A stretch of DNA of 33,724 bases from Acidobacteriota bacterium (GTDB lineage: Bacteria > Acidobacteriota > Thermoanaerobaculia > Multivoradales > UBA5704), in the NCBI GenBank assembly GCA_040005235.1, contig JBDTZG010000058.1, forward strand, positions 1 through 33,724, written 5' to 3'. The position numbers and the translations under genes were made by a program. Every line of letters begins with the position of its first letter. The first letter of the stretch is position 1. The notes below the pieces were generated by a model. It worked only from the letters and a program-made list of their open reading frames with translations, made no database searches and had not been told where the DNA came from. Below are positions 3,001 through 32,321 of the stretch, piece by piece.

Positions 3001-3130
3001 CTCGGCGGCCATTCGTTGCTCGCCACCCAGCTCGCCTCGCGCCTGCGTAGGACGTTCGAGATCGAGCTGCCGCTCGCCGATCTGTTCGTCGCCTCGACCG
3101 TCGCCGGGATCGCCGAACGGGTGGCGGCGC
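1..3130 (+). other. Module 1 (partial LCL-type C, A, T); A code DVEHIGGIDK
   Basis: HHIATDGWS; FDVSMEQ, ITQAHL, LIVGGE, NGYGPTEAVID; GGHSL. Code read by manual alignment to GrsA-PheA. Confidence 0.85.
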
Positions 3131-12100: not shown

Positions 12101-12999
12101 TCGGCAGGATCTTGCCGGGGCGCCGCGGGTTCGTGGTCGACGAAACGGGCGAGGTCCAAACGCTCGGCGGCGTCGGCGAGCTGGTGCTTGGCGGTCTGCT
12201 CGCGCGCGGCTATCTCGATCGGCCGGATCTGACCGCCGAGCGCTTCCGTCCCGATCCATTCGCTGCGCAAACCGGCGCACGGATCTATTGGACCGGCGAC
12301 CGTATCCGGCAGCGGGGAGATGGCTCGTTTGACTACCTGGGGCGAACCGACAGCCAGATCAAGGTCCGCGGTTTCCGTATCGAGCCGGGGGAGATCGAGG
12401 CGGCGTTCCTGGGGCATCCGGGAGTCAAAGATGCGATCGTGCTCGCCCGCGAGGTGCTGGGCGCGGGGCCGCGGTTGATCGCCTGGTATCGGCCGCTCGG
12501 GGACTTAGGCGGCGGCCCCGACCTCCGCGCCTTCCTCGCCGGGCGGCTGCCGGACTACATGGTGCCGAGGGCGTTCGTCGAGGTGGCGCAATGGCCGATG
12601 ACGGCCACCGGCAAGATCGATCGCCGAGCCCTGCCCGATCCGCAGCGCTTGAGCACGGGCCAGCGGACGCCGCCGAAGACGTCGGTGCAGCACCTGATCG
12701 CCGACCTCTGGCGCGAGGCGCTGCCAGATCTCGGCGACGAGGTGGCGATCGAGGACAGCTTCTTCGAGCTGGGCGGCCATTCGCTGCTCGCCGTGCGCAT
12801 CACGTCCAAGGTGGCGGCGAATTTCCAAGTCGAGCTGCCGCTCAAACGGCTCTTCGAAGCCCCGTCGATCGCCGGCCTGGAAGCCGCCGTCCTCGCCGCC
12901 GAGTCCCGGCCGGGCCAAAGCGAGAAAATCGCCCGGGTGCTGCTGCGAATGAAAAGCCTGTCGCCGGACGAGAAAAAGCAACGGCTCGCCGCGGGGTGA
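1..12999 (+). CDS. Multimodular non-ribosomal peptide synthetase NRPS-1, 5'-truncated: C(partial)-A-T-C-A-T-C-A-T-C-A-T-tail
   Basis: Frame 1 is open from base 1 (ALSGPLAFAPFVAALSAVVARH..., mid C domain) to TGA 12997-12999. It has four HHxxxDGWS motifs (301, 3604, 6895, 10114), four YTSGSTG/YGPTE/GK(V/I)D A-domain motif sets and four GGHSL PCP motifs (3004, 6310, 9532, 12772). Confidence 0.97.
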   Translation, partial: ALSGPLAFAPFVAALSAVVARHARLRTRFGERDEKPFAEVVPPSAFSVPRIDLSGLATNAEAERLATAEGRRPFDLPLGPLLRVTLIRHGPNSYDALFVFHHIATDGWSISVFSREMAELYAAALEMRPARLPSLPIEVADWAAWQRGWLSGEVYSRELSWWRDRLAGAPDVLELPADRPRPSRRIHSASHFVWRELSPDQTAAIGARARAAGATAFMVLLAAWAGLLSRLGAGADLVIGSPVANRNRAETEGLIGFFVNSLALRLSADPAGSLEDLLAGARTAALGAYAHQDFPFERLVAELAGTRAGTGGGTRKNGAPPIYQTSLVFQNLPEPVMLPGLETRVEPLAGGGPKVDLGLGVSPVREDGAERYAVRLEIDLDLFDPATGARLLAGFEAMADALATRPKTRLLDAELLGPAERHQLLVEGADRDHNLPPWRLHDFLARNARERPDEPAVESEHEAGRRYTWGELDAHTNRLARRLAGLGAGPERVIGVSLEWSVDRPLAIYAIWKAGACYLPVDPELPVERRALLLADSGAVALITRERFWAELTTASDDPAAWAPLLLGDDGLPLAPGPEAEPSAALPDNLAYILYTSGSTGVPKGVAVSHAHAAVHLAAMVDVYRMDASDRVLQFAAASFDVSMEQIGIALTSGATLVVRGPELPAPGELSSWLARLRITQAHLSTAIWTEWSWSDPASAPLPRDLRALIVGGEAMSAAAVERFAALLATRSAPPVLWNGYGPTEAVIDATLHEVRSGPAGGSGSVPIGRLLPRRTGFVADPSGAPQTLGGRGELLLGGLLARGYFGRPDLTAERFRPDSSGIARRPGARVYWTGDRARVIASGAFEFLGRIDQQVKIRGFRIEPGEIESALGHHPAVKEAIVLARGAGESSRLIAWFRPLTAGGRAIDPRELRRFLGAVLPDYMIPAAFVEIAEWPKTATGKVDKKALPEPSRESAERIFVALRTPAEEIIAGLFVELLARGGGAAELPPIGGDSDFFALGGHSLLATQLASRLRRTFEIELPLADLFVASTVAGIAERVAALAGGPAAPPVERIDRIEREGSALPLSFAQERIWFLDRLEPGRATYNLGFRLTLEGPLVPAALGVAFGTVVSRHEPLRTRYPLVDDRPVQEILPPEEGGSAALPAVDLAGALAEPSATAEARRIARAFGRRPFDLARGPVLRAARLLRGAEISDLLFVFHHIATDGWSTAVFSRELVAAYGAAIEGRAAPLPDLPIDYADWAIWQRRRLSGGFYDAEVAWWRERLAGATEIAELPIDRPRPANPRRLAAALRHDLPDSLSAALAARARASGATLFMALLAAWAGLLSRLAGHREGSDLVIGTPVANRNRAETEPLIGFFVNSLALRISTESPSGLTLSELLLRTKRAALAAYEHQDLPFDRLVAELGGGARFGQAPPIYQVLMGLQNQPEPVLLPGLRTTFEELGGGTAKFDLSLVVLPVREPGTGGHDRLAAMLEIDLDLFEVATGERLLRGFSALAAELAAHPGRPLAEAELLDRSERHQLLAEWNDAELALPPVRVHDFLARHVRERPDEPALESEHEPGRRYTWRELDAHTDRLARRLAFLGAGPERVVAVSLPWSVDRALSVYAIWKAGACYLPVDPDLPAERRALLLSEARAVVLIARNLPSALSGSSATVTPLLLSKENGFPAAFGPEAIPRAALPENLAYLIYTSGSTGTPKGVAVSHRRAAAHFEASAGFYGWNASDRVIQLGAAGFDLSVDQIGVALAAGSTLVVRGPEPPAPADLSAWLGALRITCATLPTPLWAEWTLATEPLPKTLRRLYAGGEAMSAAAAERFRKKLAASPDPPTMWNAYGPTEAVVVATCHDLATGFLPESGSVPIGRPLPRRIAYVLDPAGDLQALGGRGELALGGLLARGYLGRPDLTAERFRPDPFAENEGARVYWTGDRVRRRADGAFEYLGRIDRQVKIRGVRIEPGEIEAALAAHPGVQEAIVLVRDAPGIGKRLIAWYVPRPGEPPSCPSPGSNPPPPRGKGPFADFKRFLGGRLPDYMVPTAFVEIAEWPLTPNGKVDRRALPEPAIEAEGPARIALSTPIEEIVAGAFAELLGINDALGADAEFFSLGGHSLLATQLASRLRRAFGVEIPLAEIFAAPTVAGIAGRIEKKLTEGSDVEPIPRMARPADVSLSFAQERLWFIDRLEPGNATYNVGFRLMLQGRFSRAALEAALAAVVGRHEPLRTRYAQPGDRARQEIDPPSSSLSSRWPLVDLTLDDRSSAAEAARIAKALGRRPFDLARGPVVRAALLRRGTACHDAVFTFHHIAIDGWSIAIFSREIAELYGAALEGREAHLPELPIAYSDWAIWQRGWLAGDRYDRELSWWRGHLLGAPEAIDLPADRPRPAAPKRLATQVRRSLSPHLSQALRARANAESSTLFMTLLTAWAGLLSRLGAGRDLVIGTPIANRNRAETEGLIGFFVNSLAIRIAAEEHGGHGGPPLRVLLGRTREASVGAFAHQDFPFERLVAELGGARGGNVPPIYQVSFAFQNLPPPVMLPGLVTTVEELDGGTAKLDLGLVVTPLSGGGLAAQLELNLDFFDPATGARLLAGFERMAAELAAHPEKVLADAELLGPAERQQLLIEWREGDLALDPLLVHDFIARNARERPEALALESEHEPGRRYSWAEVAAHTDVLARRLAGLGAGPETVVGVSLDRSVDRVLAMFAVWKAGACYLPIDPELPEERRMLLLGDAGAVVVILRDVPSGDLRWIGTVAPLLVIKESGLPVDGGPEEEPRAALPENLAYVIYTSGSTGMPKGVGISHEDAAGHFASAAGFYRMDGTDRVVQFASASFDVSMEQVGVALASGGTLVVRGPELPPPLELSAWMTRWGITNANLPTAVWSEWSWSDAQLPRQLRVLVTGGEAMTPAAAERFRVRLNEMDDPPVVYNGYGPTETVVTATCYDLRHGRLPESGSVSIGRLLPGRSGLVVDESGKIQPLGGVGELVLGGLLARGYLDRPDLTAERFRPDPFTDASFGARLYWTGDRVRQRGDGSFDYLGRTDQQIKIRGFRIEPGEIEAALAQHPGIKEAIVLARETPETGKRLIAWVRPRSLEVVLDSDELRRDLSSRLPAYMIPSAFVQIEEWPLSATGKIDRRALPDPSFDSKSERIALRTPTEEIVAGLFAELLGVSDLGADSDFFNLGGHSLLATQLASRLRRTFEVELPLAELFAGSTVAAIAGRIDALAGRPRQANFPLLRSERPDDLPLSFAQERLWFLDRLEPGTSTYNVGFRLSLDGALSPAALALALRALVARHEPLRTRFAFVDDRPTQRIEPPGDSSLSGIDLSGIAAGRALAEADRIAQAEGRRPFDLARGPVFRSNLVRRAPDHHEALFVFHHIATDGWSTGVFSRDLVELYGAALETRPADLPPMPIDYADWALWQRSWLAGEAYDRQLSWWRERLAGAPEVIDLPLDRPRPAQPKRHAQTIRRELSIELSSAVALRARSASATIYMTLLAAWAALLSRLGAGRDLVIGLPIANRNRAETEGLVGFFVNSLPIRISADPAPAPDLTLGDLLARARAAALGAFAHQDFPFDRLVAELGGGRGSRGGGIPPVYQVSLMLQNLPAPVRMPGLLAGVKELGGGTAKLDLGLAVVPVAEEGTERLTALLELNLDLFDPPTGARLLAGFEAMLEELAHHPERSFAQAELLAAAERHQLLVEWVDWNERDLAPAPLCVHDFLARHARERPDAPALESEHEPERRYTWGEAAAHTDRLARRLAGLGAGPERVVGVSLERSVDRVLAMFAIWKAGACYLPVDPELPAERRALLLSDARAVVLVARETPSELSGLNLKVAPLLLKKESGLPMNFGPEGIPRPAVPENLAYLIYTSGSTGLPKGVGISHRHAVGHFASASAFYRMDSSDRVVQFAAASFDVSMEQVGVALASGGTLVVRGPELPPPLELSAWMTRHGITHANLPTAVWSEWSRSKAPLPRELRVLVTGGEAMTPDAAERFRSRLAEMDRPPTVYNGYGPTETVVTATCYDLRWGRLPESGSVSIGRILPGRRGFVVDETGEVQTLGGVGELVLGGLLARGYLDRPDLTAERFRPDPFAAQTGARIYWTGDRIRQRGDGSFDYLGRTDSQIKVRGFRIEPGEIEAAFLGHPGVKDAIVLAREVLGAGPRLIAWYRPLGDLGGGPDLRAFLAGRLPDYMVPRAFVEVAQWPMTATGKIDRRALPDPQRLSTGQRTPPKTSVQHLIADLWREALPDLGDEVAIEDSFFELGGHSLLAVRITSKVAANFQVELPLKRLFEAPSIAGLEAAVLAAESRPGQSEKIARVLLRMKSLSPDEKKQRLAAG
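3200..6440 (+). other. Module 2 (C-A-T); A code DLDTYGAVVK
   Basis: HHIATDGWS; FDLSVDQ, ITCATL, LYAGGE, NAYGPTEAVVV; GGHSL. Confidence 0.85.
6005..6049. repeat. REP-like palindromic element inserted in frame in the module 2 A subdomain
   Basis: CCTTCCCCCGG (6007-6017) and CCGGGGGAAGG (6036-6046) form a perfect 11-bp inverted repeat around an 18-nt C-rich loop. It encodes a Pro-rich insert absent from the other nine modules. Confidence 0.65.
6495..9660 (+). other. Module 3 (C-A-T); A code DVENVGGVTK
   Basis: HHIAIDGWS; FDVSMEQ, ITNANL, LVTGGE, NGYGPTETVVT; GGHSL. Confidence 0.85.
9720..12885 (+). other. Module 4 (C-A-T, last module of NRPS-1); A code DVENVGGVTK
   Basis: HHIATDGWS; FDVSMEQ, ITHANL, LVTGGE, NGYGPTETVVT; terminal-type PCP EDSFFELGGHSLLAV. 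Confidence 0.85.
12886..12999 (+). other. C-terminal post-PCP tail of NRPS-1, putative docking element
   Basis: AVLAAESRPGQSEKIARVLLRMKSLSPDEKKQRLAAG. Not present after internal PCPs. 31/37 identical to the NRPS-2 tail. The docking role is inferred from position. Confidence 0.65.
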
Positions 13000-15900
13000 A
13001 CACCATCGAACTGACGCCGAGAGTCGAGAACCGCGCGCCGATGTCGTTCGGCCAGGAGGCGCTCTGGTTCCTCTCGAAGCTCGCGCCGGAGTCGCGCGCC
13101 TACCATCTGTGCGGCGCGGCGCGCGTCGTAAGCCCTTGCGACGCGGAGCGCCTGGAGCGCGCGTTCGCAGCCCTTTCCGAACGGCACCCCGTCCTTCGCA
13201 CCACCTTCGGCGAGGGGTCGGACGGCAAGCCCGAACAGCGGATCGGTAGCGGCGCCGGAGTCGTCTTCTCGCGCGAGATCGCAGAAGACGCCGAGGCTCT
13301 GAACGCCCTTCTGGCCCGCCATCTCGACGCTTCGTTCGACCTCGAGCGCGGGCCTCTGGTTCGCGCCGGGTTGATCACCGCCGGCGGCGAAACCGTGCTC
13401 TGGCTCGCGGCTCATCATCTGGTCGCCGACTTCTGGTCGCTCGCCGTGATGCTGCGCGATCTGGGGCGGGCTTATGCCACCGGCGACGAAATCGAAACGG
13501 AAGGCGGGCCACAGCTCTCGTATGCCGAGTGGGCGCGTTGGCAGCGCGAGCGGACGGCGGGCGAAACGGGGCAGCGCGAGCTGGCGGTCTGGAAGGAGAT
13601 CCTCGCAGGCGAGCTGCCGCGCCTGGAGCTGCCGACCGATCGGCCGCGACGGGCGAAGGTGACGTGGGTAGGCGGCTCGGTGGACGTCTTCGTCGGAGCC
13701 GAAGCCACGCGCCGTCTCGGCAGGATCGCGCGCGGCGCAAAGAGCAATCTTTTCTCAGGTTTGCTCGCCGCGTTCCAGGCGTTTCTTTCACGCCTTTCGG
13801 GGCAGGACGATCTGATCGTCGGCACGCCCACCACCGGCCGGTTCGGCGCCCGGGTCGACACCCAAGTCGGCTACTTCGTGAACCCGGTGCCGGTCCGCGC
13901 CGACCTTTCGGGCGATCCTTCGTTCGTCGATCTTTTGGCGCGGCAGAAACCCACGATAGAAGGCGCGCTCGCGCTTCAGGCGTATCCCTTCTCACGCCTT
14001 GCCGAGGAGATCCAACCGGAGCGCGATCCCGGCCGCTCGCCGATTTTCGATGCGATGTTGGCCTACGAGAAAGCGCGCGGAGGCGAGGGATTTTGGGGCT
14101 TCGCGTTGGGCCTTGCCGGAACGCAGGTGGACCTCGGCGGTCTCGCGCTCGAATCGCTGCGGGTGGAGCCTTCGGGCTCGCCCTTCGATCTATCGCTCGC
14201 GGTGTCCGAGGTGGGCGGCGGCCTTGCGGGCTCGCTGCGCTTTTCGAGCGAGCTGTTCGACCGCGCGACGATCGAGCGTTGGGCCGGATGGCTGGTGCGG
14301 TGGATCGAGGGCGCCGCGGCCGAGCCGGAGCTCCGGCTTTCCGATCTGCCGTTGCTCTCGCCTTTGGAGCGGCAGGAGCTGCGGCTGGAGAGCGAACCGC
14401 CCGCGGTGGCGTTCGCGAGCTCCGCGCTGGTCCACGATTTACTCGCCCGCCATGCGCGGGAGCGGCCGGGGGAGCTGGCGGTCGAATCGGAGCACGAGCC
14501 GGGCCGGCGCTATACCTGGGGCGAGGCGGCTGCCCATACCGATCGGCTGGCACGGCGGCTCGCGGGTTTGGGCGCGGGGCCGGAGAAGGTGGTCGGCGTG
14601 TCGCTGGAGCGCTCGGTCGATCGGGTGCTGTCGATTTATGCGATCTGGAAGGCGGGGGCCTGTTACCTGCCGGTCGATCCGGAGCTGCCGGCGGAGCGGC
14701 GGGCGTTGTTGTTGAGCGATGCCGGGGCGGTGGTGGTGATTGCGAGGGCGATGCCGTCGAAAGGGGCGGGCTGGATCGGGTCGGCTGCACCGCTTCTTCT
14801 CAGTAAGGATCGCGGGTTGCCGGTGGACGGCGGACCGGAAGGAGAGCCGCGGGCGGCGTTGCCGGAAAACCTGGCGTATGTGATCTATACCTCGGGCTCG
14901 ACCGGGGTGCCGAAAGGCGTGGGGATTTCTCATCGGGATGCGGCCGGGCACTTTGCGGCGGCGGCGGGTTTCTACGGAATGGATTCGACCGACCGGGTGG
15001 TGCAGTTCGCTTCGGCAAGCTTCGATGTGTCGATGGAGCAGGTCGGCGTGGCGTTGGCTTCCGGCGGGACGCTGGTGGTACGGGGTCCGGAGCTGCCGCC
15101 GCCGCTGGATCTTTCGGATTGGATGACGCGGTGGAGAATCACGAACGCGAATCTGCCGACCGCGGTCTGGACCGAGTGGAGCCGGGCTGTAGATCCACTG
15201 CCGAAGGACCTGCGCGTGCTGGTGACCGGTGGCGAGGCGATGACCCCGGCGGCTGCCGAGCGTTTCCGGCGGCGAATGGCGCGAATGGAGCGCCCGCCGG
15301 TCGTCTACAACGGCTATGGGCCGACCGAGGCGGTGGTGACCGCGACCTGTTTCGATCTGGCCGATCTGGCGGAGGGCGATCGGCCGGATTCGGGCTCGGT
15401 GCCGATCGGCCGCCTGCTGCCCGGGCGCAGCGGAGCCGTCGTCGATCGGACGGGCGTGGCGCAGCCGTTCGGTATCCCCGGCGAGCTGGTGTTGGGGGGA
15501 CTGCTCGCGCGCGGCTATCTCGATCGGCCGGACCTTACGGCCGAGCGATTCCGTCCCGATCCCTTGACTGACAAATTCGGCGAGAGGGTCTATCGAACCG
15601 GCGACCGCGTCCGGCAGCGGGGCGACGGCACAATCGAATACCTGGGACGGATCGATCACCAAATCAAAATCCGCGGCGTCCGCATCGAGCCGGGGGAGAT
15701 CGAAGCGGCGCTTGATGACCACCCGGGCGTCAAGGATTCGATCGTCCTCGCCCGGGAAGATCCGAACGCGCCGAATGCTGGCAAGCGGCTGATCGCCTGG
15801 TACCGGCCAATCCCCGACGAAGCGGTGACGGCGGCCGACCTGCGGCAATTCCTCGCGGCCCGGCTGCCCCAGGCGCTCGTGCCCGCCGCGTTCGTCGAGG

Positions 15901-18900
15901 TCGCGGACTGGCCGGTGGGACCTACCGGCAAGATCGACCGCCGCGCTCTGCCCGAGCCGGAGAACGACGGTGCAGGCGCCATTTGGATTGCGCCGCGGAC
16001 CCCTACCGAACAGATTGTCGCCGGCCTGTTCACCGAGCTTCTCGGAACCTCCGCACCGGGCGCCGAAGCGGACTTCTTCGCGCTCGGAGGCCATTCGCTC
16101 TTGGCCGCGCAGCTCGTCTCGCGCCTGCGCCGAGCGTTCGGCGTCGAGGTTCCCCTCGGTGAGCTTTTTGCCGGCTCGACGGTCGCCGCAATCGCCGAAC
16201 GCATCGATGCGCGCGCCGGAGCTCCGCAGGCGCCGCCTCTCCTGCGGATCGCTCAATCGCCCGAGGCGGCGCTGTCGTTTGGCGAAGAGCGGCTCTGGTT
16301 CCTCGATCGGCTGGATCCCGGCCGGGCGACCTACAACATCGGCTTTCGGTTGGCGCTCGGCGGGCCGCTGGATTCCGAGGCACTCGCAGGAGCGCTCCGT
16401 GAGGTCATCGCCCGCCATTCTCCCCTACGCACCCGGTACGCCGACCGCGAGGGGCGGCCCTACGCGACGATTCCGCCGCCGGAGTCGGCGTGGCGAATGC
16501 CGTTCGTCGATCTCTCCACAGCCATTTCGACGGAACGCGCGAAGGCCGAGGCCGCGCGGATCGCCGAAGGAGAAGGGCGGCGGCCTTTCGATCTTGCGCG
16601 CGGCCCGCTCCTGCGCGCGTCGCTGGTTCGGCGATCGGCGGATCTCCACGATTCGCTGTACGTGTTTCATCACATCGCGACCGACGGCTGGTCGCTGGGG
16701 GTGTTCTCGCGCGAGCTGGCGGAGCTGTACGGCGCCGCGGTCGAGGGTCGCTCCGCGAAGCTTCCGGAGCTGGCCGTCGAGTACGCGGATTGGGCGGCCT
16801 GGCAGCGCGGTTGGCTTTCGGGCGAGGTCTACGAGCGCGAGTTGTCCTGGTGGCGCGAGCGGCTCTCCGGAGCGCCGGAAGTGCTCGACCTGCCCCTCGA
16901 TCGGCCGCGATCGTCGCAGAAAAATTCGCAGGGCCGGCGTTCCCGCTGGGTCCGCCGTGAGCTGTCGGCGGAGCTGACCGAGGCGATCGCGGCCCGCTCG
17001 CGTGCAGCGGGATCGACCCCCTTCATGGTGCTTCTTGCGGCCTGGGCCGGAGTTCTGTCACGCCTTGGAGCCGGGACCGATCTGGTTCTCGGCACGGTGG
17101 TCGCGAATCGCAACCTGCCCGAGATCGAAGGGCTGATCGGATTCTTCGTCAATTCGCTCGCCGTTCGGATTTCCGCCGAGGGCGAGCCGACGTTGGGCGA
17201 GCTGCTCGAACGGACGCGGGCGGCGGCGCTCGGCGCCTACGCGCACCAGGAGCTCCCGTTGGACCGCCTGGTGGCAGAGCTGGGCGGCGGTGCGCGTTGG
17301 GGCGGAGTACCGCCGCTCTATCAGGCCTCACTGGTGCTCCAGAATCTCCCCGAGCCGGTGCTGCTGCCGGGGCTTTCGACCGCGATCGAGTCGCTCGATG
17401 GCGGAGTCGCGAAGCTCGACTTGTCGCTCGTCCTTTCGCCGATCCGGGAGGGAGGGACCGAGCGGCTCGCCGCGGAGCTGGAGCTGAATCTGGATCTGTT
17501 CGATCCGGCGACGGGAGCGCGGCTACTCGCCGGGTTCGAGCGGATGGCGGCGGAGCTGGCAGCGCTGCCGGAGAAGGCGTTGGCGGACGCGGAGCTGCTG
17601 GGGCCGGCGGAGCGGCATCAACTGCTGATCGAATGGCGGGAAGGGGATGTCGCGGTGCCGCCGCTCCTTATGCACGAGTGGATCGCGAAGCATGCGCGCG
17701 AGCGGCCGGCGGCGTTGGCGTTGGAGTCGGAGCACGAGCCGGGCCGGCGGTATTCGTGGTTTGAGGTGGCGGCGCATACCGATCGGCTGGCTCGGCGGCT
17801 CGCGGGTTTGGGCGCGGGACCGGAAGGGGTGGTCGCGGTGTCGTTGGAGCGCTCGGTCGATCGGGTGCTGGCGATGTTTGCGATTTGGAAGGCGGGCGCT
17901 TGTTATTTGCCGGTCGATCCGGAGCTTCCGCTAGAGCGTCGGGCGCTGTTGCTTGAGGATGCCAGGGTTGTGGTGGTGATGGCGAGGGATGTGACGTCGG
18001 GGGAGGGTGGTTGGATCGGGTCGGTGACTCCGCTTCTTATCAGTAAGGAGAGCGGGTTGCCGGTGGACGCCGGGCCGGAGTGGGAGCCGCGGGCGGCGGT
18101 GGCGGAAAACCTTGCGTACGTGATCTATACGTCCGGATCGACCGGGGTGCCGAAAGGTGTGGGGGTTTCACATCGGCATGCCGCCGGGCACTTCGCGGCG
18201 GCGGTGGGTTTTTATCGGATGGATGCGACCGACCGGGTGGTGCAGTTTGCCTCCGCGAGTTTCGACGTTTCGATGGAGCAGGTGGGCGTGGCGTTGGCTT
18301 CCGGCGGATGTTTGGTCGTGCGTGGGCCGGAGCTTCCTCCGCCGTTGGAGCTTTCAGGTTGGATGGCGCGATGGGGGATTACCAACGCGAATTTGCCGAC
18401 CGCCGTTTGGACCGAGTGGAGCCGGTCGGAGACTCCGTTGCCGCGCTGTCTGCGCGTGCTGGTGACGGGTGGCGAGGCGATGACTCCTACGGCGGCCGAG
18501 CGGTTCCGAAAAGCGCTCGTCGAGATGGAAAACCCTCCGGTCGTCTACAACGGCTATGGCCCGACCGAGACGGTGGTGACCGCCACCTGTTACGACTTGG
18601 CGGTCGGCAAGCTCAACGATTCCGGCGCGGTCTCGATCGGCCGCCTGCTTCCTTCCCGCACCGGCTTCGTCGTCGATCCGGAAGGTCGCCCGCTACCGCT
18701 CGGCGGCATCGGCGAGCTGGCGCTGGGCGGCCTGCTCGCGCGAGGCTATCTCGACCGGCCGGACCTCACCGCCGAGCGATTCCGCCCCGATCCCTTTACT
18801 GACAAAGCCGGCGAGAGGCTCTATCGGACCGGCGACCGCGTAAGGCAGCGGGGCGACGGCACTTTCGACTACCTCGGACGCATCGACAGCCAAATCAAGA

Positions 18901-27900: not shown

Positions 27901-30900
27901 CGACGCTGGTGGTGCGCGGTCCCCAGATGCCGGCTCCGGCGGATCTTTCGCGGTGGCTGGGCGATCTGCGGATCAGCTGCGCGACGTTGCCGACGCCGCT
28001 GTTCAACGAGTGGACCTTCGCGCCGGAGCCGCTGCCGAAAGCCCTTCGAATGCTCTACGCCGGGGGCGAAGCGATGAGCATCGCGGCGGCGGAGAGGTTT
28101 CGCGGGCGGGCAGGATTGGGGGCGCTGTTGGCCTTGAACGCCTATGGACCCACCGAGGCGGTGGTGGCCGCCACCTGCCACGACTTTCTCAAGGGCCGCC
28201 TGCCGGAGTCGGGCGCGGTGTCGATCGGTCGTTTGTTGCCTCGACGGAGCGCCTATGTGTTGGACGAAATCGGCGTGCCGGTGCCGCTCGGCGGCCTCGG
28301 CGAGCTGGCGCTCGGCGGCCTGCTCGCGCGCGGCTATCTCGATCGGCCGGACCTCACCGCCGAGCGATTCCGCCCCAATCCTTTTACTGACCAATTCGGA
28401 GCGAGAACCTATCGAACCGGCGATCGCGTGAGGAGGCGGGGCGACGGCTCGTTCGACTACCTCGGCCGCATCGACGGCCAAATCAAAATCCGCGGTTTCC
28501 GCATCGAGCCGGGGGAGATCGAAGCCGCGCTCGCCGCCCACTCTCAAATCAAAGAAGCGATCGTCCTCGTCCGCGAGACGCCGCGGATCGGCAAACGCCT
28601 GATCGCCTGGGTGCGGCCGCAGGACGCGCTCGACCCCGGCGAGATCGCCCGCTTTCTCAACCTACGCCTTCCCGCATACATGGTGCCCTCGGCATTCGTC
28701 GAGATCGCCGAATGGCCGCTTTCGCCCTCCGGAAAAGTCGATCGCCGCGCGCTGCCCGATCCCGCCTTCGAAACCGGCGCGCGGTCCTCCCTGCGCACGC
28801 CTTCGGAAGAGATCATTGCGGGTCTGTTCACCGAGCTTCTGGGAGCCACGGACCCTGGCGCGGACTCCGATTTCTTCGCCCTCGGCGGTCATTCGCTTCT
28901 CGCGACGCAGCTCACCTCCCGCCTACGAAGAACTTTCGAGGCCGAGCTTCCCCTCGCCGAGCTTTTCGCCGGCCCGACGGTGGCGGGGATCGCCGAACGG
29001 ATCGATGCGCTCGCCGGCCGGCCCCAGGAGTCCATCGCCCCTCTGGCCAGATCCCCGCGGCCCGCAGAGGTACCGCTTTCGTTCGCCCAGGAGCGTCTCT
29101 GGTTTCTCGATCGCCTGGAGCCCGGAACGGCCACGTATAACGTCGGCTTGAGGCTCACCCTCGGGGGTCCGTTGGTCCCTGCGGCGCTTGCCGCAGCGCT
29201 CGGCGCGCTAGTCGCGCGGCATGAGCCGCTGCGCACCCGGTACGTGATCTCCGGCGATTTGCCGTTCCAGAGAATCGATCCGCCGGGCGGTTTCTCGCTT
29301 CGAGCGGTCGATCTCGAAAGGCTCGATGAAAAGAGCGCCAGCCCGGAAGCCGAGCGCCTCGCGGCGTTCGAGGGCCGCCGGCCGTTCGATCTCGCGCGCG
29401 GGCCGGTCCTGCGTTCGGCCTTGATTCGCCGCGCCCCCGAGCGGCACGAAGTTCTTTTCGTGTTCCACCACATCGCGACTGACGGCTGGTCGATCGGCGT
29501 CTTCTCCCGCGAGCTGGTGGAACTGTATGCCGCCGCCTCGGCACGCCGCCCCTCGCGCCTGCCGCCGCTGCCGATCGAGTACGCCGATTGGGCCCTTTGG
29601 CAACGCACCCTGCTCGCCGGTCAGACCTACGATCGCCAGCTCGCCTGGTGGCGCGAGCGGCTCGCCGGAGCGCCCGAGGTGCTCGACTTGAGTCTAGACC
29701 GGCCGCGCCCGGCTCTGCCGAGACGGCGCGCCCGCACGATGCGTCGCGAACTTTCGGCCGACCTTTCGGCAGCCGTCGCCAGCCGGGCGCGAGCCGCGGG
29801 TGCCACTTCATACATGGTGCTGCTCGCCGCGTGGGCCGGCCTGCTCTCGCGGATGGGGGCAGGGAGCGATCTGGTTATCGGGCTGCCGATCGCAAACCGC
29901 AACCGGAAGGAGACTGAAGGGCTGATCGGATTTTTCGTCAACTCGCTCCCGGTGCGGCTGTCGACCGCGTCCGATCCCACTCTCGCCGAGCTTCTCACGC
30001 GCGCCCGGACCGCGGCGCTCGGGGCCTACGCGCACCAGGATTTCCCGTTCGATCGATTGGTTGCCGAGCTGGGCGGAGTTAGGGGCGGCGGCGTTCCGCC
30101 GATCTACCAGGTGTCGCTGATGTTTCAGAATCTGCCCGAACCGGCGATGCTGCCGGGTCTCCGGACTACGGCCGAGGAGCTGCGCGGTGGCCTCGCGAAG
30201 ATCGACCTGGGGCTCGCGGTGGTGCCCTTGCGCGAAGCGACGGGCGATCGGCTCGCGGCCCTCTTGGAGCTGAATCTCGATCTGTTCGACCCGGCGACCG
30301 GCGCGCGGCTGTTGCGCGGCTTCGAGGCGATCCTGGGGGAGGTTGCGGCGCACCCAGAGCGCGCCCTCGGAGAAGCGGTGCTGATCGGGGCGCCGGAGCG
30401 GCACCAGTTGCTCGCCGAATGGAACGACCGGGATCTCGCGCTCGCGCCGCGGGTGATTCACGACTGGATTGCGCGGCACGCGCGGGAGCGGCCGGACGAT
30501 CCGGCTCTCGAATCGGAGCACGAGCCGGGCCGGCGGTATTCGTGGCGGCAAGTCGCCTTTCACACGGATCTGTTGGCGAGAAGACTCGCAGGGCTCGGGG
30601 TGGGTCCCGAGAGAGTGGTGGGCGTGGCGCTCGAACGGTCGGTCGATCGGGTGCTCGCGATGTACGCGATCTGGAAAGCGGGTGCCTGCTATCTGCCGGT
30701 CGATCCGGATCTGCCTGTGGAGCGGCGGGCGCTGATGCTTGAAGATGCGCGGGCGGTCGTGCTGATCGCCAGGGATTTAACGCCGGATCTTTTGGGTTTG
30801 AGCGGAACGGTTGAGCCGCTTCTTCTCAGTAAGGAGAACGGGTTGCCGATGGACTTCGGACCGGAGGGGATTCCGCGAGCGGTCTTGCCGGAAAACCTTG

Positions 30901-32321
30901 CGTACATGATCTACACGTCGGGCTCCACCGGGGTGCCGAAGGGGGTGGCCGTCAGCCACCGGCACGCGGCGGGGCATTTCGCGGCGGCGGCGGGCTTCTA
31001 CGGAATGGATGCGACGGATCGGGTGGTGCAGTTTGCCGCCGCGGGTTTCGACGTGTCGATGGAACAGGTGGGAGTGGCCTTGGCTTCGGGAGGAACTCTC
31101 GTCGTGCGCGGGCCGGAGCTGCCGCCGCCGCTGGAGCTTTCGGCGTGGCTGACGCGGCACAGGATCACGAACGCGAACCTGCCCACCGCCGTCTGGACCG
31201 AGTGGAGCCGTTCGGAGGCGCCGCTGCCCAAGGACCTGCGCGTGCTGGTGACGGGCGGCGAGGCGATGACTCCCGCGGCGGCGGAGCGGTTCCGAAAAAG
31301 GCTCGCCCAGATGGACGATCCGCCGGTTGTTTACAACGGCTACGGGCCGACCGAGACGGTGGTCACCGCCACCTGCTACGACCTTCGTTACGGGCGCCTG
31401 CCTGAATCCGGCGCGGTGACGATCGGCCGACTTCTGCCTGGGCGCACCGGGATCGTGGTGGACGAGTTAGGGGAGATCCAACCGCTCGGCGGCATCGGCG
31501 AGTTGGTTTTGGGCGGCCTGCTCGCGCGAGGCTATCTCGATCGGCCGGACCTTACCGCCGAGCGATTCCGCCCCAACCCCTTACCAGACGCTTTTTTCGG
31601 AGCGAGGGTCTATGGGACCGGCGATCGCGTCCGCCAGCGGGGCGACGGCTCGTTCGATTACCTAGGTCGCACCGATGCCCAAATCAAGATCCGCGGCTTC
31701 CGCATCGAGCCGGGAGAGATCCAAGCGGCACTCAGCCTACATCCGGCAATCCACGATGCGATCGTCCTCGCCCGCGAAGTACTCGGCGCAGGTCCGCGGC
31801 TGATCGCCTGGTACCGGTCTTCCGCTGAATCGACCGCCGCCGACCTGCGCGCCTTCCTCGCTGCACGGCTACCGGCCTACATGGTCCCCGCGGCGTTCGT
31901 AGAGGTCCTGGAATGGCCGATCTCGGCGACGGGAAAAATCGATCGCCAGGCGCTTCCCGAACCGGCGCGCTCTACCGGTACCGAACGGACCCCGCCGCGG
32001 ACGGCGATCCATCAGGTGATCGCCGATCTTTGGCGCGAGGCGCTGCCGGAGGCGGGGGAGGACCTGGCGATCGAAGACAACTTCTTCGAGCTGGGCGGCC
32101 ACTCTCTCCTCGCGGTGGGACTCGCCTCGAAGGTGGCCGCGAGCTTCCAAGTCGAGCTGCCGCTCAAGCGCCTGTTCGAGGCGCCGACGGTCGCAGGCCT
32201 CGGAGCCGCGGTCCTCGCCGCGGAGTCGCGTCAAGGCCAAAGCGAGAAGATCGCGCGGGTGTTGCTGCGAATGAAGAGCCTGTCGCCCGAAGCGAAGCGC
32301 GACAGGCTCGCATTGGGCTGA
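12996..32321 (+). CDS. Multimodular non-ribosomal peptide synthetase NRPS-2, 6441 aa: (C-A-T)x6-tail, no TE
   Basis: GTG 12996 overlaps the NRPS-1 stop (GTGA, 4-nt overlap). The C1 motif MSFGQEALWF follows 15 residues later. Six C, A and PCP motif sets are present (GGHSL at 16086, 19299, 22509, 25719, 28884, 32094). Stop TGA 32319-32321. The start codon is inferred. Confidence 0.95.
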   Translation: MNTIELTPRVENRAPMSFGQEALWFLSKLAPESRAYHLCGAARVVSPCDAERLERAFAALSERHPVLRTTFGEGSDGKPEQRIGSGAGVVFSREIAEDAEALNALLARHLDASFDLERGPLVRAGLITAGGETVLWLAAHHLVADFWSLAVMLRDLGRAYATGDEIETEGGPQLSYAEWARWQRERTAGETGQRELAVWKEILAGELPRLELPTDRPRRAKVTWVGGSVDVFVGAEATRRLGRIARGAKSNLFSGLLAAFQAFLSRLSGQDDLIVGTPTTGRFGARVDTQVGYFVNPVPVRADLSGDPSFVDLLARQKPTIEGALALQAYPFSRLAEEIQPERDPGRSPIFDAMLAYEKARGGEGFWGFALGLAGTQVDLGGLALESLRVEPSGSPFDLSLAVSEVGGGLAGSLRFSSELFDRATIERWAGWLVRWIEGAAAEPELRLSDLPLLSPLERQELRLESEPPAVAFASSALVHDLLARHARERPGELAVESEHEPGRRYTWGEAAAHTDRLARRLAGLGAGPEKVVGVSLERSVDRVLSIYAIWKAGACYLPVDPELPAERRALLLSDAGAVVVIARAMPSKGAGWIGSAAPLLLSKDRGLPVDGGPEGEPRAALPENLAYVIYTSGSTGVPKGVGISHRDAAGHFAAAAGFYGMDSTDRVVQFASASFDVSMEQVGVALASGGTLVVRGPELPPPLDLSDWMTRWRITNANLPTAVWTEWSRAVDPLPKDLRVLVTGGEAMTPAAAERFRRRMARMERPPVVYNGYGPTEAVVTATCFDLADLAEGDRPDSGSVPIGRLLPGRSGAVVDRTGVAQPFGIPGELVLGGLLARGYLDRPDLTAERFRPDPLTDKFGERVYRTGDRVRQRGDGTIEYLGRIDHQIKIRGVRIEPGEIEAALDDHPGVKDSIVLAREDPNAPNAGKRLIAWYRPIPDEAVTAADLRQFLAARLPQALVPAAFVEVADWPVGPTGKIDRRALPEPENDGAGAIWIAPRTPTEQIVAGLFTELLGTSAPGAEADFFALGGHSLLAAQLVSRLRRAFGVEVPLGELFAGSTVAAIAERIDARAGAPQAPPLLRIAQSPEAALSFGEERLWFLDRLDPGRATYNIGFRLALGGPLDSEALAGALREVIARHSPLRTRYADREGRPYATIPPPESAWRMPFVDLSTAISTERAKAEAARIAEGEGRRPFDLARGPLLRASLVRRSADLHDSLYVFHHIATDGWSLGVFSRELAELYGAAVEGRSAKLPELAVEYADWAAWQRGWLSGEVYERELSWWRERLSGAPEVLDLPLDRPRSSQKNSQGRRSRWVRRELSAELTEAIAARSRAAGSTPFMVLLAAWAGVLSRLGAGTDLVLGTVVANRNLPEIEGLIGFFVNSLAVRISAEGEPTLGELLERTRAAALGAYAHQELPLDRLVAELGGGARWGGVPPLYQASLVLQNLPEPVLLPGLSTAIESLDGGVAKLDLSLVLSPIREGGTERLAAELELNLDLFDPATGARLLAGFERMAAELAALPEKALADAELLGPAERHQLLIEWREGDVAVPPLLMHEWIAKHARERPAALALESEHEPGRRYSWFEVAAHTDRLARRLAGLGAGPEGVVAVSLERSVDRVLAMFAIWKAGACYLPVDPELPLERRALLLEDARVVVVMARDVTSGEGGWIGSVTPLLISKESGLPVDAGPEWEPRAAVAENLAYVIYTSGSTGVPKGVGVSHRHAAGHFAAAVGFYRMDATDRVVQFASASFDVSMEQVGVALASGGCLVVRGPELPPPLELSGWMARWGITNANLPTAVWTEWSRSETPLPRCLRVLVTGGEAMTPTAAERFRKALVEMENPPVVYNGYGPTETVVTATCYDLAVGKLNDSGAVSIGRLLPSRTGFVVDPEGRPLPLGGIGELALGGLLARGYLDRPDLTAERFRPDPFTDKAGERLYRTGDRVRQRGDGTFDYLGRIDSQIKIRGFRIEPGEIEAALARHPVVQEAIVLAREIPNLGLTLIAWVRPLAAFDSNELRRYLAARLPSYMVPAAFVEIAGWPLTPTGKIDRRALPDPSFESNAGRIALRTPTEEIVAGLFTELLGVAEIGVEDDFFSLGGHSLLATQLASRIRKTFDVEFPLGELFAAARVAVIAERIDAFSGGPIAPPLKRRKASGKENEGELSFAEERLWFLDRLEPGTATYNVGFRLALDGPLAFAPFVAALSAVVARHARLRTRFGEREGKPFAEADFPRVFPVPRIDLSAIESPTEALRLAAAEGRRPFDLARGPLLRVALLRHAADRHDALFVFHHIVTDGWSISVFSREMAELYAAAIEKRPALLPSLPIEVADWAAWQRDWLSGEVYLRQLAWWRERLAGAPEVLDLPVDRPRPALAKSPSWLVRRELPSALFSSVVARSRAAGATPFMLLLAAWAGLLSRLGAGRDLVIGAPIANRNRAETEGLIGFFINSLALRISIPAEESLGALVERTREAALGAYAHQDFPFDRLVAELGGGRGVKVSPIFQVSLVFQNLPEPVLLPGLTTAIEPLGGGVAKLDLSLLLSPVREREQERLSALLEINLDLFDPATGARLLRGFEAMVGEGVAHPERSLADAELLGQPERHQLLLEWKGKNLDLPPILVHDWIAKHALERPDALALESEHEPGRRMTWAEVATHTDVLARRLAGLGAGPEKVVAVSLERSIDRVLAIYAIWKAGACYLPVDPELPAERRAWLLSHAGAVVLMARAIPSEMTGWIGTVASLLLSKESGLPVDFGPEEDPRAALPENLAYVIYTSGSTGVPKGVGISNRNAAGHFAAACGFYRMDSTDRVVQFASASFDVSMEQVGLALASGGTLVVRGPELPPPLELSAWMTRWGITNANLPTAVWTEWSWSDAPLPRELRNLVTGGEAMTPAAAERFRLRLAEMDPPPVVYNGYGPTETVVTATCYDLRYGRLPESGSVSIGRLLPARTGWVVGETGEVQALGGIGELVLGGLLARGYLDRPDLTAERFRPNPLTDASFGERLYWTGDRVRQRGDGSFDYLGRTDYQIKIRGFRIEPGEIESALGQHRQVKEAIVLAREPAGISGAGQRLIAWVRPLVGLPIDASELRRFLSSRLPKYMVPWAFVEIAEWPLTPTGKIDRGALPDPAAESGGRIALRTPTEEIVAGLFAELLGVSNPGADADFFVLGGHSLLATQLASRLRTTFAAEIALAELFAGSTVAAIAGRIDARAGRPQAPPLLRTVRSGEVELSFGQERLWFLDRLEPGRATYNVGLRLTLEGAFEPPAFDAALQRIVERHAPLRSRFGERDGKPYAAIEPAMALDLPCIDLSAIQSDVEAVRIAQAEGRRLFNLARGPVLRTTLVRRALDRHDALLVFHHIGTDGWSLGVFSRELAELYGAAVERRPAILPALPIEYADWAAWQRGWMAGEVYDAQLAWWRERLSGAPESLELPADRPRPLASPRRPVAVLRRELPHDLSKALAARARSSGSTPFMALFTSWAALLTRLGAGDDLVIGTAVANRNRAETEGLIGFFVNSLAIRIATNGPSSFVELLSRVREAALSSYAHQDFPFDRLVAELGGVRGGHAPPIYQVSMVFQNLPEPALLPGLATTFEEIGGETAKLDLALTVLPTRAPDEGLSAILELNLDLFDPATGTRLLAGFEAMARELAEHPERRLAEVELLGRAERHQLLIEWNAAECASAPKRIHDFLFRNASERPEGSALESEDPAGRRYSWAELDAVTGRLARKLAGLGAGPERVVGVSLERGVDRQVAILSIWKAGACYLPVDPELPRERRSLLLRDAGAVVLVLRGETSEGLEWIGSVAPLLLSKEGGLPVDHGPEGEPRAAVPENLAYLLYTSGSTGVPKGVAVTHCDAAEHFGAAARFYDLGADDRIVQFAEASFDVSMEQLGLALVCGATLVVRGPEMPAELPAWLDWLGITDANLPTAVWNEWAFSDAPLPEKLRVLVVGGEAMTPAAAARFREKLAASANPPRLWNAYGPTETVVTATCQDVAVGRLGESGAVAIGRALPGRSAFVVDALGEPQALGGIGELVLGGLLARGYLDRPDLTAERFRPDPFAEKAGARVYCTGDRVRQRVDGSFDYLGRTDSQIKLRGIRIEPGEIEAALGRHRQVQEAIVLLRETGTGRRLIAWYRPHGALGALGDGGEIDPADLRRFVAAQLPAALVPSAFVEMAEWPLSPTGKIDRRALPEPMIDRESGERVALRTPTEEIVAGLFASLLGTGPDLSADADFFALGGHSLVATQLASRLRRTFQVEIPLGELFAGSTVAGIAGRIEALANIGAPPPPALLPVPPRPAEIPLSFAQERLWFLDRLEPDPATYNTGFRLTLNGALDEEALAGAFRALIARHEPLRTRFVLAEDRPIQEIAPPEAAACAFRMPRIDLSAAPSAVEAARLARGEGRRPFDLSRGPLLRVVRVTLGRGKSELQLILHHIATDGWSLGVFARELAELYAARVERRAVTLPALPLAYADWAIWQRAWLSGEVFDRELAWWRGRLAGAPEALDLPFDHPRPARPAGLGWMGDGELSADLASRLAARARSAGSTLSMALFAAWAGLLARLGAGTDLVIALPIANRNRAETEGLIGFFVNTLALRIEIPESGVTLGGLLARVREAALPAYAHQDFPFERLVASAGAPHPQVSFAFQNLPAPVLLPGIETQVEELGGGGAKFDLGLIVVPDAEGLLTRIEISLDRLDPATGARLLRGFEAMVGELANDPGRSLAEAELFGPAERHQLLVEWNDADLALPKALVHDWIARHARERPDDPALESEHEPHRRSTWREVEAQADRLARRLAGLGAGPERVVGVSLEWSVDRVLSVYAIWKAGACYLPVDPDLPVERKRLLLADARAVALVARETSGDLGWIGPAALLVLSKENGLPVAAGPEEDPRTALPENLAYLIYTSGSTGVPKGVAVSHRDATGHFAGSTDFYGWRADDRVILLGAISFDLSVDQVGCALAAGATLVVRGPQMPAPADLSRWLGDLRISCATLPTPLFNEWTFAPEPLPKALRMLYAGGEAMSIAAAERFRGRAGLGALLALNAYGPTEAVVAATCHDFLKGRLPESGAVSIGRLLPRRSAYVLDEIGVPVPLGGLGELALGGLLARGYLDRPDLTAERFRPNPFTDQFGARTYRTGDRVRRRGDGSFDYLGRIDGQIKIRGFRIEPGEIEAALAAHSQIKEAIVLVRETPRIGKRLIAWVRPQDALDPGEIARFLNLRLPAYMVPSAFVEIAEWPLSPSGKVDRRALPDPAFETGARSSLRTPSEEIIAGLFTELLGATDPGADSDFFALGGHSLLATQLTSRLRRTFEAELPLAELFAGPTVAGIAERIDALAGRPQESIAPLARSPRPAEVPLSFAQERLWFLDRLEPGTATYNVGLRLTLGGPLVPAALAAALGALVARHEPLRTRYVISGDLPFQRIDPPGGFSLRAVDLERLDEKSASPEAERLAAFEGRRPFDLARGPVLRSALIRRAPERHEVLFVFHHIATDGWSIGVFSRELVELYAAASARRPSRLPPLPIEYADWALWQRTLLAGQTYDRQLAWWRERLAGAPEVLDLSLDRPRPALPRRRARTMRRELSADLSAAVASRARAAGATSYMVLLAAWAGLLSRMGAGSDLVIGLPIANRNRKETEGLIGFFVNSLPVRLSTASDPTLAELLTRARTAALGAYAHQDFPFDRLVAELGGVRGGGVPPIYQVSLMFQNLPEPAMLPGLRTTAEELRGGLAKIDLGLAVVPLREATGDRLAALLELNLDLFDPATGARLLRGFEAILGEVAAHPERALGEAVLIGAPERHQLLAEWNDRDLALAPRVIHDWIARHARERPDDPALESEHEPGRRYSWRQVAFHTDLLARRLAGLGVGPERVVGVALERSVDRVLAMYAIWKAGACYLPVDPDLPVERRALMLEDARAVVLIARDLTPDLLGLSGTVEPLLLSKENGLPMDFGPEGIPRAVLPENLAYMIYTSGSTGVPKGVAVSHRHAAGHFAAAAGFYGMDATDRVVQFAAAGFDVSMEQVGVALASGGTLVVRGPELPPPLELSAWLTRHRITNANLPTAVWTEWSRSEAPLPKDLRVLVTGGEAMTPAAAERFRKRLAQMDDPPVVYNGYGPTETVVTATCYDLRYGRLPESGAVTIGRLLPGRTGIVVDELGEIQPLGGIGELVLGGLLARGYLDRPDLTAERFRPNPLPDAFFGARVYGTGDRVRQRGDGSFDYLGRTDAQIKIRGFRIEPGEIQAALSLHPAIHDAIVLAREVLGAGPRLIAWYRSSAESTAADLRAFLAARLPAYMVPAAFVEVLEWPISATGKIDRQALPEPARSTGTERTPPRTAIHQVIADLWREALPEAGEDLAIEDNFFELGGHSLLAVGLASKVAASFQVELPLKRLFEAPTVAGLGAAVLAAESRQGQSEKIARVLLRMKSLSPEAKRDRLALG
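13035..16215 (+). other. Module 5 (divergent C, A, T); A code DVENVGGVTK
   Basis: HHLVADFWS at 13413-13439; FDVSMEQ, ITNANL, LVTGGE, NGYGPTEAVVT; GGHSL. Confidence 0.85.
16270..19430 (+). other. Module 6 (C-A-T); A code DVENVGGVTK
   Basis: HHIATDGWS; same pocket residues as module 3; GGHSL. Confidence 0.85.
19490..22640 (+). other. Module 7 (C-A-T); A code DVENVGGVTK
   Basis: HHIVTDGWS; same pocket residues as module 3; GGHSL. Confidence 0.85.
22690..25850 (+). other. Module 8 (C-A-T); A code DVENVGAVTK
   Basis: HHIGTDGWS; FDVSMEQ, ITDANL, LVVGGE, NAYGPTETVVT; GGHSL. Confidence 0.85.
25910..29015 (+). other. Module 9 (C-A-T); A code DLDTYGAVAK
   Basis: HHIATDGWS; FDLSVDQ, ISCATL, LYAGGE, NAYGPTEAVVA; GGHSL. 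Confidence 0.85.
29070..32207 (+). other. Module 10 (C-A-T, last module of NRPS-2); A code DVENVGGVTK
   Basis: HHIATDGWS; same pocket residues as module 3; terminal-type PCP EDNFFELGGHSLLAV. Confidence 0.85.
32208..32321 (+). other. C-terminal post-PCP tail of NRPS-2, putative docking element
   Basis: AVLAAESRQGQSEKIARVLLRMKSLSPEAKRDRLALG, same length as the NRPS-1 tail. Confidence 0.65.

Follow-up and report, generated by a model that had tools for sequence, protein, structure and literature searches.

The window analysed here, a stretch of 33,724 nucleotides, is the entire contig C34 (JBDTZG010000058.1) of a draft genome of an Acidobacteriota bacterium (GCA_040005235.1; 6.2 Mb in 140 contigs), and it carries the genes of two nonribosomal peptide synthetase (NRPS) subunits, NRPS-1 and NRPS-2. 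By the names of the closest public proteins the genome falls in the class Thermoanaerobaculia. NRPS-1 and NRPS-2 both end in a 37-residue tail that is a candidate C-terminal docking domain, and a third copy of this tail closes NRPS-3, which is encoded at a second locus of the same genome. Tails of this class are followed in other assembly lines by a subunit that opens with a short acidic helix, and the three subunits are tentatively read here as parallel, starter-headed paralogs sharing one docking code for an acceptor encoded elsewhere. The genes, the tails and the domains adjoining the tails are the following:

1..12999, + strand: NRPS-1, the last four of six condensation-adenylation-thiolation (C-A-T) modules, with four Pfam matches each to Condensation, AMP-binding and PP-binding
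12673..12885, + strand: terminal T domain (peptidyl carrier protein, PCP) of NRPS-1, of a 'terminal T' class that aligns with the subunit-terminal T domains of other NRPS lines
12886..12996, + strand: tail 1, 37-residue candidate C-terminal docking domain with a helix-LSP-helix layout, AVLAAESRPGQSEKIARVLLRMKSLSPDEKKQRLAAG; the stop codon is at 12997-12999
12996..32321, + strand: NRPS-2, six C-A-T modules without epimerization (E) or thioesterase (TE) domain, as given by the GTG start, Pfam and the domain map
31995..32207, + strand: terminal T domain (PCP) of NRPS-2, placed by translation, domain map and identity comparison
32208..32318, + strand: tail 2, 37-residue candidate C-terminal docking domain, AVLAAESRQGQSEKIARVLLRMKSLSPEAKRDRLALG; the stop codon is at 32319-32321
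32369-33724, - strand: 3' part of a clpB-type AAA+ chaperone gene, convergent to NRPS-2 and marking the end of the cluster here

NRPS-1 is truncated at the first base of the window and its remainder lies upstream on contig C86, which overlaps C34 by 55 bases. Exact overlaps of this length chain the contigs as C86>C34>C39 and C79>C83>C48. Once joined, NRPS-1 comprises six modules, of which C86 holds two and the window four, and NRPS-3, at its second locus, has four. Both joins fall within repeated NRPS sequence and modules may be missing from them. The GTG start of NRPS-2 at 12996 overlaps the stop codon of NRPS-1 (12997-12999) as GTGA. The Pfam scan of NRPS-1 and NRPS-2 returned four families in all, none of them a docking-domain family; no E or TE domain was found in either protein, and the Condensation matches equal the number of modules.

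Tails 1 and 2 are identical at 31 of 37 residues (amino-acid identity 0.84) and have the common core GQSEKIARVLLRMKSLSP. This likeness had been pointed out in the first-pass annotation of the window and was borne out by translation; a whole-genome search added the third T+tail copy at C83:2339-2449, the end of NRPS-3, whose tail is 78-81% identical to the other two. A query of 51 residues recovers the other tail copies in the genome at E = 2e-20, far above chance. The copies differ by synonymous changes at 11-14 of the 37 codons (dS 0.7-1.0, dN 0.11-0.16, dN/dS ~0.15), and between tails 1 and 2 the 18-residue core has five synonymous changes and no replacement. The likeness of the tails is thus old and is held by purifying selection. 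Recent gene conversion as its source is ruled out by the dS of 0.7-1.0. The C-terminal position, the two predicted helices and the purifying selection are all consistent with the docking element that the annotation had proposed.

The T domains that precede the tails form a class of their own, as the annotation had also held: the three are 75-90% identical to each other and 31-45% identical to the internal T domains. Moreover, the T+tail unit shares 46-57% identity with the terminal T+tail of unrelated lines, against 31-45% with the internal T domains of the same enzyme. The identity of the tails (78-84%) is not above that of the adjoining terminal-module T (73-90%) and A (79-81%) domains, and the likeness of the tails follows from that of the terminal modules, which are in their entirety old paralogs under purifying selection. 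NRPS-1, NRPS-2 and NRPS-3 have a common head C domain, terminal module and T+tail, and none of them has a TE. Their head C domains are 79-80% identical to each other and 31-36% to the internal C domains, while the 13 internal C domains are mutually 58-87% alike; within the sets of three, the terminal C domains are 72-74% and the terminal A domains 79-81% identical. The domains of all three proteins form a closed family, apart from every other NRPS cluster of the genome. By these identities the sameness of the tails is one part of a paralogy of the entire head and end modules.

The tail family and its acidic-helix partner

The first-pass annotation had regarded the tails as a possible new docking family, a claim that their distribution in public proteins does not support. 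Among the 120 best public matches to the T+tail unit, 24 carry the motif PG[QRK]S[EDR][KRT][IL]A[RKG]. This PGxSExIAx tail ends the protein in 23 of them, with 13-40 residues between motif and C-terminus, whereas one (P0009) has it internally. One of the 23 is the C83 protein of this same genome and 22 come from other DNA. In the tail alignment E..PGQSEKIA is invariant, and the core of the family can be written PGQSEKIAR..LLR. T domains of cyanobacteria, Pyrinomonadaceae, Binatia and others end in remoter tails that can be written ..LL.EL..LS[DE]EE...LL.

The subunit that comes after such a tail has a recurrent opening. For the tail class '[IT]A[RQ].L...[LV]...S' the following subunit begins with an acidic helix, LL..LL.EEG[IVLF], at all nine junctions examined (L065, L066, L101, L151, L153, L155, L156, the step from C118_156808 to C118_177315 in this genome, and P0009), and the helix sits ~15-20 residues ahead of the C core. 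A second tail class pairs with helices of the LSPEKRALLE type in 6/6 junctions. In these related systems the tail is basic and the partner helix acidic. G357, a sister genome that is almost closed, has two lines in which a T-tail is followed by acidic helix-C and the line runs on to a TE; one of them starts with FAAL (fatty acyl-AMP ligase), ACP (acyl carrier protein) and a starter C domain. P0009, a public metagenome protein, holds at residues ~180-260 a T domain, a PGQSEKIAR tail, a linker, a relic Met, the helix DELLAYLLQEEGI and a C domain, all in one chain. By this order of parts it is a natural fusion of two subunits, which would have kept the docking pair in cis after the loss of a stop codon.

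The layout of tail and acidic helix looks like the known alpha-helical docking of the type 2/PAX kind. As judged from its occurrence in these proteins, T+tail with acidic helix is a widespread cassette of Acidobacteriota and other phyla without a curated model: no Pfam or NCBIfam model matches the tail or the acidic helix, and no literature linking Acidobacteria, nonribosomal peptides and docking domains was found. The 37-residue tail would accordingly be the C-terminal half of an alpha-helical docking pair, and the subunit after it would usually supply the partner, a short acidic helix (..LS.ED.ELL..LL.EEG[IV]..) at its own N-terminus.

No NRPS gene follows tail 2, downstream of which lies the convergent clpB gene. 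Tails without an NRPS gene after them were also found in other genomes (L149, L152, L158 and probably L067), and a metagenome scan for close relatives gave one locus, again with no NRPS following the tail. Apparently, tail partners encoded elsewhere are not rare. These solitary ends also bear on a different explanation, in which the tail joins no NRPS subunits here and is either a leftover of the T-tail cassette or a means of recruiting a free-standing releasing enzyme or the tail's own copy. Subunits of other genomes that end in a tail with no NRPS gene behind it would suit it, as would the lack of a TE in the three subunits, the lack of a partner helix nearby and the presence of a free type II TE beside a phosphopantetheinyl transferase gene on C73. 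Nevertheless, a dN/dS of ~0.15 with five synonymous against no replacement changes in the core is contrary to a neutral leftover, no candidate partner has a recognisable docking motif, and the tail class has a consistent helix partner elsewhere. This explanation is considered improbable.

Heads of the three subunits and candidate acceptors

Two features lie at the N-terminus of NRPS-2, the subunit encoded directly after tail 1:

12996..13037, + strand: leader of NRPS-2, 14 residues without an N-terminal docking helix, preceding APMSFGQEALWF
13026..14381, + strand: head C domain of NRPS-2, with the motif HHLVADFWS; it shares 79-80% identity with its counterparts in NRPS-1 and NRPS-3, against 32-35% with internal C domains

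The short N-terminus that the annotation had noticed is real, with 14 residues before APMSFGQEALWF. This leader contains proline, and no Pfam match was obtained in the 35-residue N-terminus of NRPS-2. A docking domain hidden upstream of the GTG start was considered and rejected: the frame is open there, yet what it encodes overlaps NRPS-1 and does not resemble a helix. For NRPS-1 and NRPS-3 a stop codon upstream leaves room for no more than ~37 residues ahead of the C core, and the likely GTG starts would give ~17-22; these two heads are also without an acidic helix. The leaders of the three subunits are unlike one another and contain prolines.

The head C domains of all three subunits carry HHLVADFWS and an insertion. 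Outside this genome their best match has 44% identity (among 400 other genomes of the phylum), and in the protein collection identities above 50% occur only within their own family. Eight of the 11 loci with HHxxxD[FLM]WS follow FAAL-ACP in cis (seven without L046 of the unpublished genome G152). In the remaining three the domain stands once after an ACP, once at an N-terminus with nothing upstream, and once, in L054, at an N-terminus after an ACP with a docking tail; the L054 head, which is thus on a separate subunit after a tailed ACP, carries a helix. Internal HHxxxDF.S domains come after FAAL-ACP in 13/14 of the fetched proteins, and the relatives of the head C domain in this genome, on C91, C105 and C132, stand behind FAAL-type A domains (FAAL-ACP). 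The public homologues P0129, P0130, P0142 and P0203 have an N-terminal head after a short leader with no helix. A short N-terminal leader without a helix is usual for initiation modules. By likeness, all three heads would be C domains of the lipoinitiation (starter-like) type; lipoinitiation by a FAAL, an ACP and a special C domain is established, according to the relevant part of PMC9113097.

P0180, a partial protein from a public Thermoanaerobaculia metagenome-assembled genome (MAG), has HHxxxDFWS at residues 316 and 2064, and would appear to hold two units of FAAL-ACP-starter C in a single polypeptide.

In the reading tentatively preferred here, NRPS-1, NRPS-2 and NRPS-3 would all fit one same kind of partner and would therefore act in parallel as alternative starter subunits, each handing its chain to an acidic-helix acceptor encoded elsewhere. 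In regular-expression searches of the genome, the acidic-helix motif opened two NRPS proteins and no more, each of them in the C118 cluster, and no free-standing protein with the motif was found. The first of these helices is paired with the tail of the preceding gene. The other, GLSEQDRELLALLLAEEGVEL at C118:153341 (L164 142-336), lies without an NRPS upstream at the start of a polyketide synthase-NRPS line, in its first gene; this line lacks an initiation module and ends in a TE. As the sole unpaired helix of the right class in the assembly, C118:153341 would be a candidate acceptor; the partner may instead be unassembled.

Several observations weigh against this proposal. The C118 helix has a rival donor, since the tail that closes a FAAL-started, TE-less line on C117, PGRAEKIARAVLRLQAMS, belongs to the same class, and no orthology of the C117 and C118 lines to the contiguous clusters of G357 was found. 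No FAAL or ACP gene was found near either NRPS locus. The assembly is fragmented (140 contigs) with joins in NRPS repeats, and modules or a whole subunit may be absent from it. The AlphaFold2 (AF2) model of T+tail is of low confidence, with a mean predicted local distance difference test score (pLDDT) of only 65. In addition, NRPS-1 and NRPS-2 are translationally coupled through GTGA. Lastly, a junction of T-tail with a helix-less head is kept in another Thermoanaerobaculia MAG, where P0003 (HXU32506.1) and P0124 (HXU32505.1) have consecutive accessions on a contig of 6551 bases. The coupling and the kept junction fit a direct hand-off at least as well.

The C117 tail lies at G000:C117:10475-10639. 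The C117 line and the line that opens at C118:153341 look like halves of one assembly line at two loci.

The last two of the opposing observations are also grounds for supposing direct docking, in which the tail would sit on the folded head C domain of the following subunit and need no helix, in the manner of COM or DHD elements on a domain surface. NRPS-1 would then pass its chain to NRPS-2, as the gene order and the GTGA overlap would have it, and docking, given three tails and three heads that are almost the same, would be promiscuous, with self-docking, skipping and ladders in steps of four or six residues all possible. Orthologous terminal modules and the same head in all three subunits would give every junction the same chemistry, and a metagenome protein with the same head, three modules and the same tail (P0243) makes the subunits look interchangeable. 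Relatives in the head clade draw their donor from a carrier protein just upstream, and the tails are under purifying selection though the neighbouring subunit has no partner helix. Against this, the tail class has an acidic N-terminal helix as its partner at nine of nine other junctions, whereas NRPS-2 has none, and in L054 a head of the clade on a separate subunit after a tailed carrier does bear a helix. Moreover, the head clade is a lipoinitiation one, no NRPS precedes the heads of NRPS-1 and NRPS-3, a TE is missing, no feature marks a first subunit, and the four heads compared have leaders of differing sequence ahead of the C core. Direct docking is for these reasons regarded as somewhat unlikely, and the comparison leans against the suggestion of the annotation that the tail docks on the C domain of NRPS-2. 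In its more specific form, in which the T-tail cassette would bind the lipoinitiation-type C domain itself and the 3-, 4- and 6-module subunits, their heads and tails being interchangeable, would assemble in any order, the idea is quite doubtful; if true, it would describe a natural combinatorial or ladder-like family of long peptides.

The annotation was right to stress that the sequence offers little basis for an order of subunits, for donor ends and acceptor heads are nearly alike, and this in three subunits and not two. Subunits of three, four and six modules with interchangeable ends would fit a promiscuous model and a tandemly duplicated family of starters equally.

The order in which NRPS subunits act is set by docking codes, which are also of use in engineering. 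The cassette of a terminal T domain with a basic two-helix tail and an acidic N-terminal helix can aid the prediction of subunit order in the large NRPS repertoire of Acidobacteriota. The case described here is unusual, with three synthetases at two loci that share one donor code, begin with starter-type heads and lack a releasing domain. It is a candidate for a single downstream line fed by several starters, or for head-to-tail docking of a promiscuous kind; otherwise it would be a paralogous family in a fragmented assembly.

Adenylation domains and neighbouring genes

Among the 16 A domains of the three subunits, 14 are mutually 61-87% identical. This suggests a repetitive peptide and recent module duplication, and the breaks of the assembly inside the NRPS genes are probably due to such duplication and likeness. 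The other two, which come first in NRPS-1 and in NRPS-3, are 68% alike but have only 38-44% identity to these 14. Genes for tryptophan 2,3-dioxygenase and kynureninase (L031, G000:C86, 12309-14641, - strand) are divergent to NRPS-1 and adjoin its start at ~C86:14681. The two first A domains may load a unit derived from tryptophan, for example kynurenine or anthranilate.

A TE-bearing NRPS on C65 was considered as a missing member of the family and rejected, as its domains score like those of any unrelated cluster. The same locus (L148, G000:C65, 289-15964) holds genes for a tryptophan halogenase and an ABC exporter of the MacB type, together with a starter-type C-A fragment (HHAVADFAS) that has no helix, and these adjoin the TE-ending NRPS cut by the contig end; its sequence is unrelated to the three subunits.

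Comparison with known docking systems

The T+tail unit was modelled with AF2 from an alignment of 17 sequences, and in the model (mean pLDDT 65) the tail forms helices at 82-95 and 98-107 after the four helices of the T domain. A single-sequence AF2 model of the fused part of P0009, which would join a C-terminal docking domain (CDD) to an N-terminal one (NDD), had a mean pLDDT of 49. Foldseek searches with the T+tail model placed ordinary PCPs first. The structure 7B2B, at rank 7, is the isolated-PCP match that aligns farthest into the tail (99 columns), although at a root-mean-square deviation of 7.5 A this is a hint only. A phmmer search of the tail against PDB sequences gave nothing better than E = 0.23, with no docking domain among the matches, and the T+tail profile matches PaxA over the T domain only.

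The closest layout is that of the PAX '3HBa' pair (PaxB CDD/PaxC NDD) and of type 2 docking (CurG/CurH), in which, according to the relevant parts of PMC9113145 and PMC11221535, a CDD of two helices meets an NDD of one. As in these systems, the tail stands directly after the carrier and is predicted to have two short helices and a turn with a conserved Leu, and in related systems one amphipathic acidic helix precedes the C domain at the start of the following subunit. In contrast, the tail has no detectable sequence similarity to any solved chain (PaxB, CurG), and the acceptor NRPS-2 is without any helix; the likeness to this kind is one of layout. In the PaxA T1-CDD/PaxB NDD pair (PDB 7B2B) the T domain and a minimal CDD cooperate, as the relevant part of PMC8251938 describes. 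T+tail is likewise one conserved cassette, whereas the tail here is longer and has two predicted helices.

COM domains (helix-hand; described in part of PMC9113145) would offer a parallel if the tail does dock directly, with a C-terminal helix on the surface of the downstream C domain. COM donors are promiscuous according to the same part of that source, and near-identical tails would be so too in that event. Unlike the tails, COM donors follow E domains; here an E domain is absent, it is a T domain that precedes the tail, and no sequence likeness was seen.

Type 3 docking (TubC/RXP) differs in that no docking-domain family was found by Pfam in NRPS-1 and NRPS-2 and the leader of NRPS-2 has 14 residues. 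The Pfam family of beta-hairpin NDDs is TubC_N. The rhabdopeptide/xenortide (RXP) system is of this type, with a beta-hairpin NDD and a short C-terminal motif, in the account given in part of PMC11221535. There is nevertheless a resemblance to RXP docking as it is treated in parts of PMC6195595 and PMC9872161, since the subunit ends are alike and could give product libraries.

Finally, the heads can be compared with the lipoinitiation C domains (starter C/CIII) covered in part of PMC9113097. They are unlike these in having no FAAL or ACP near either locus, and one of them directly follows a tailed peptidyl carrier. They resemble them in belonging to the clade that follows FAAL-ACP, in their N-terminal position and in their short leader.

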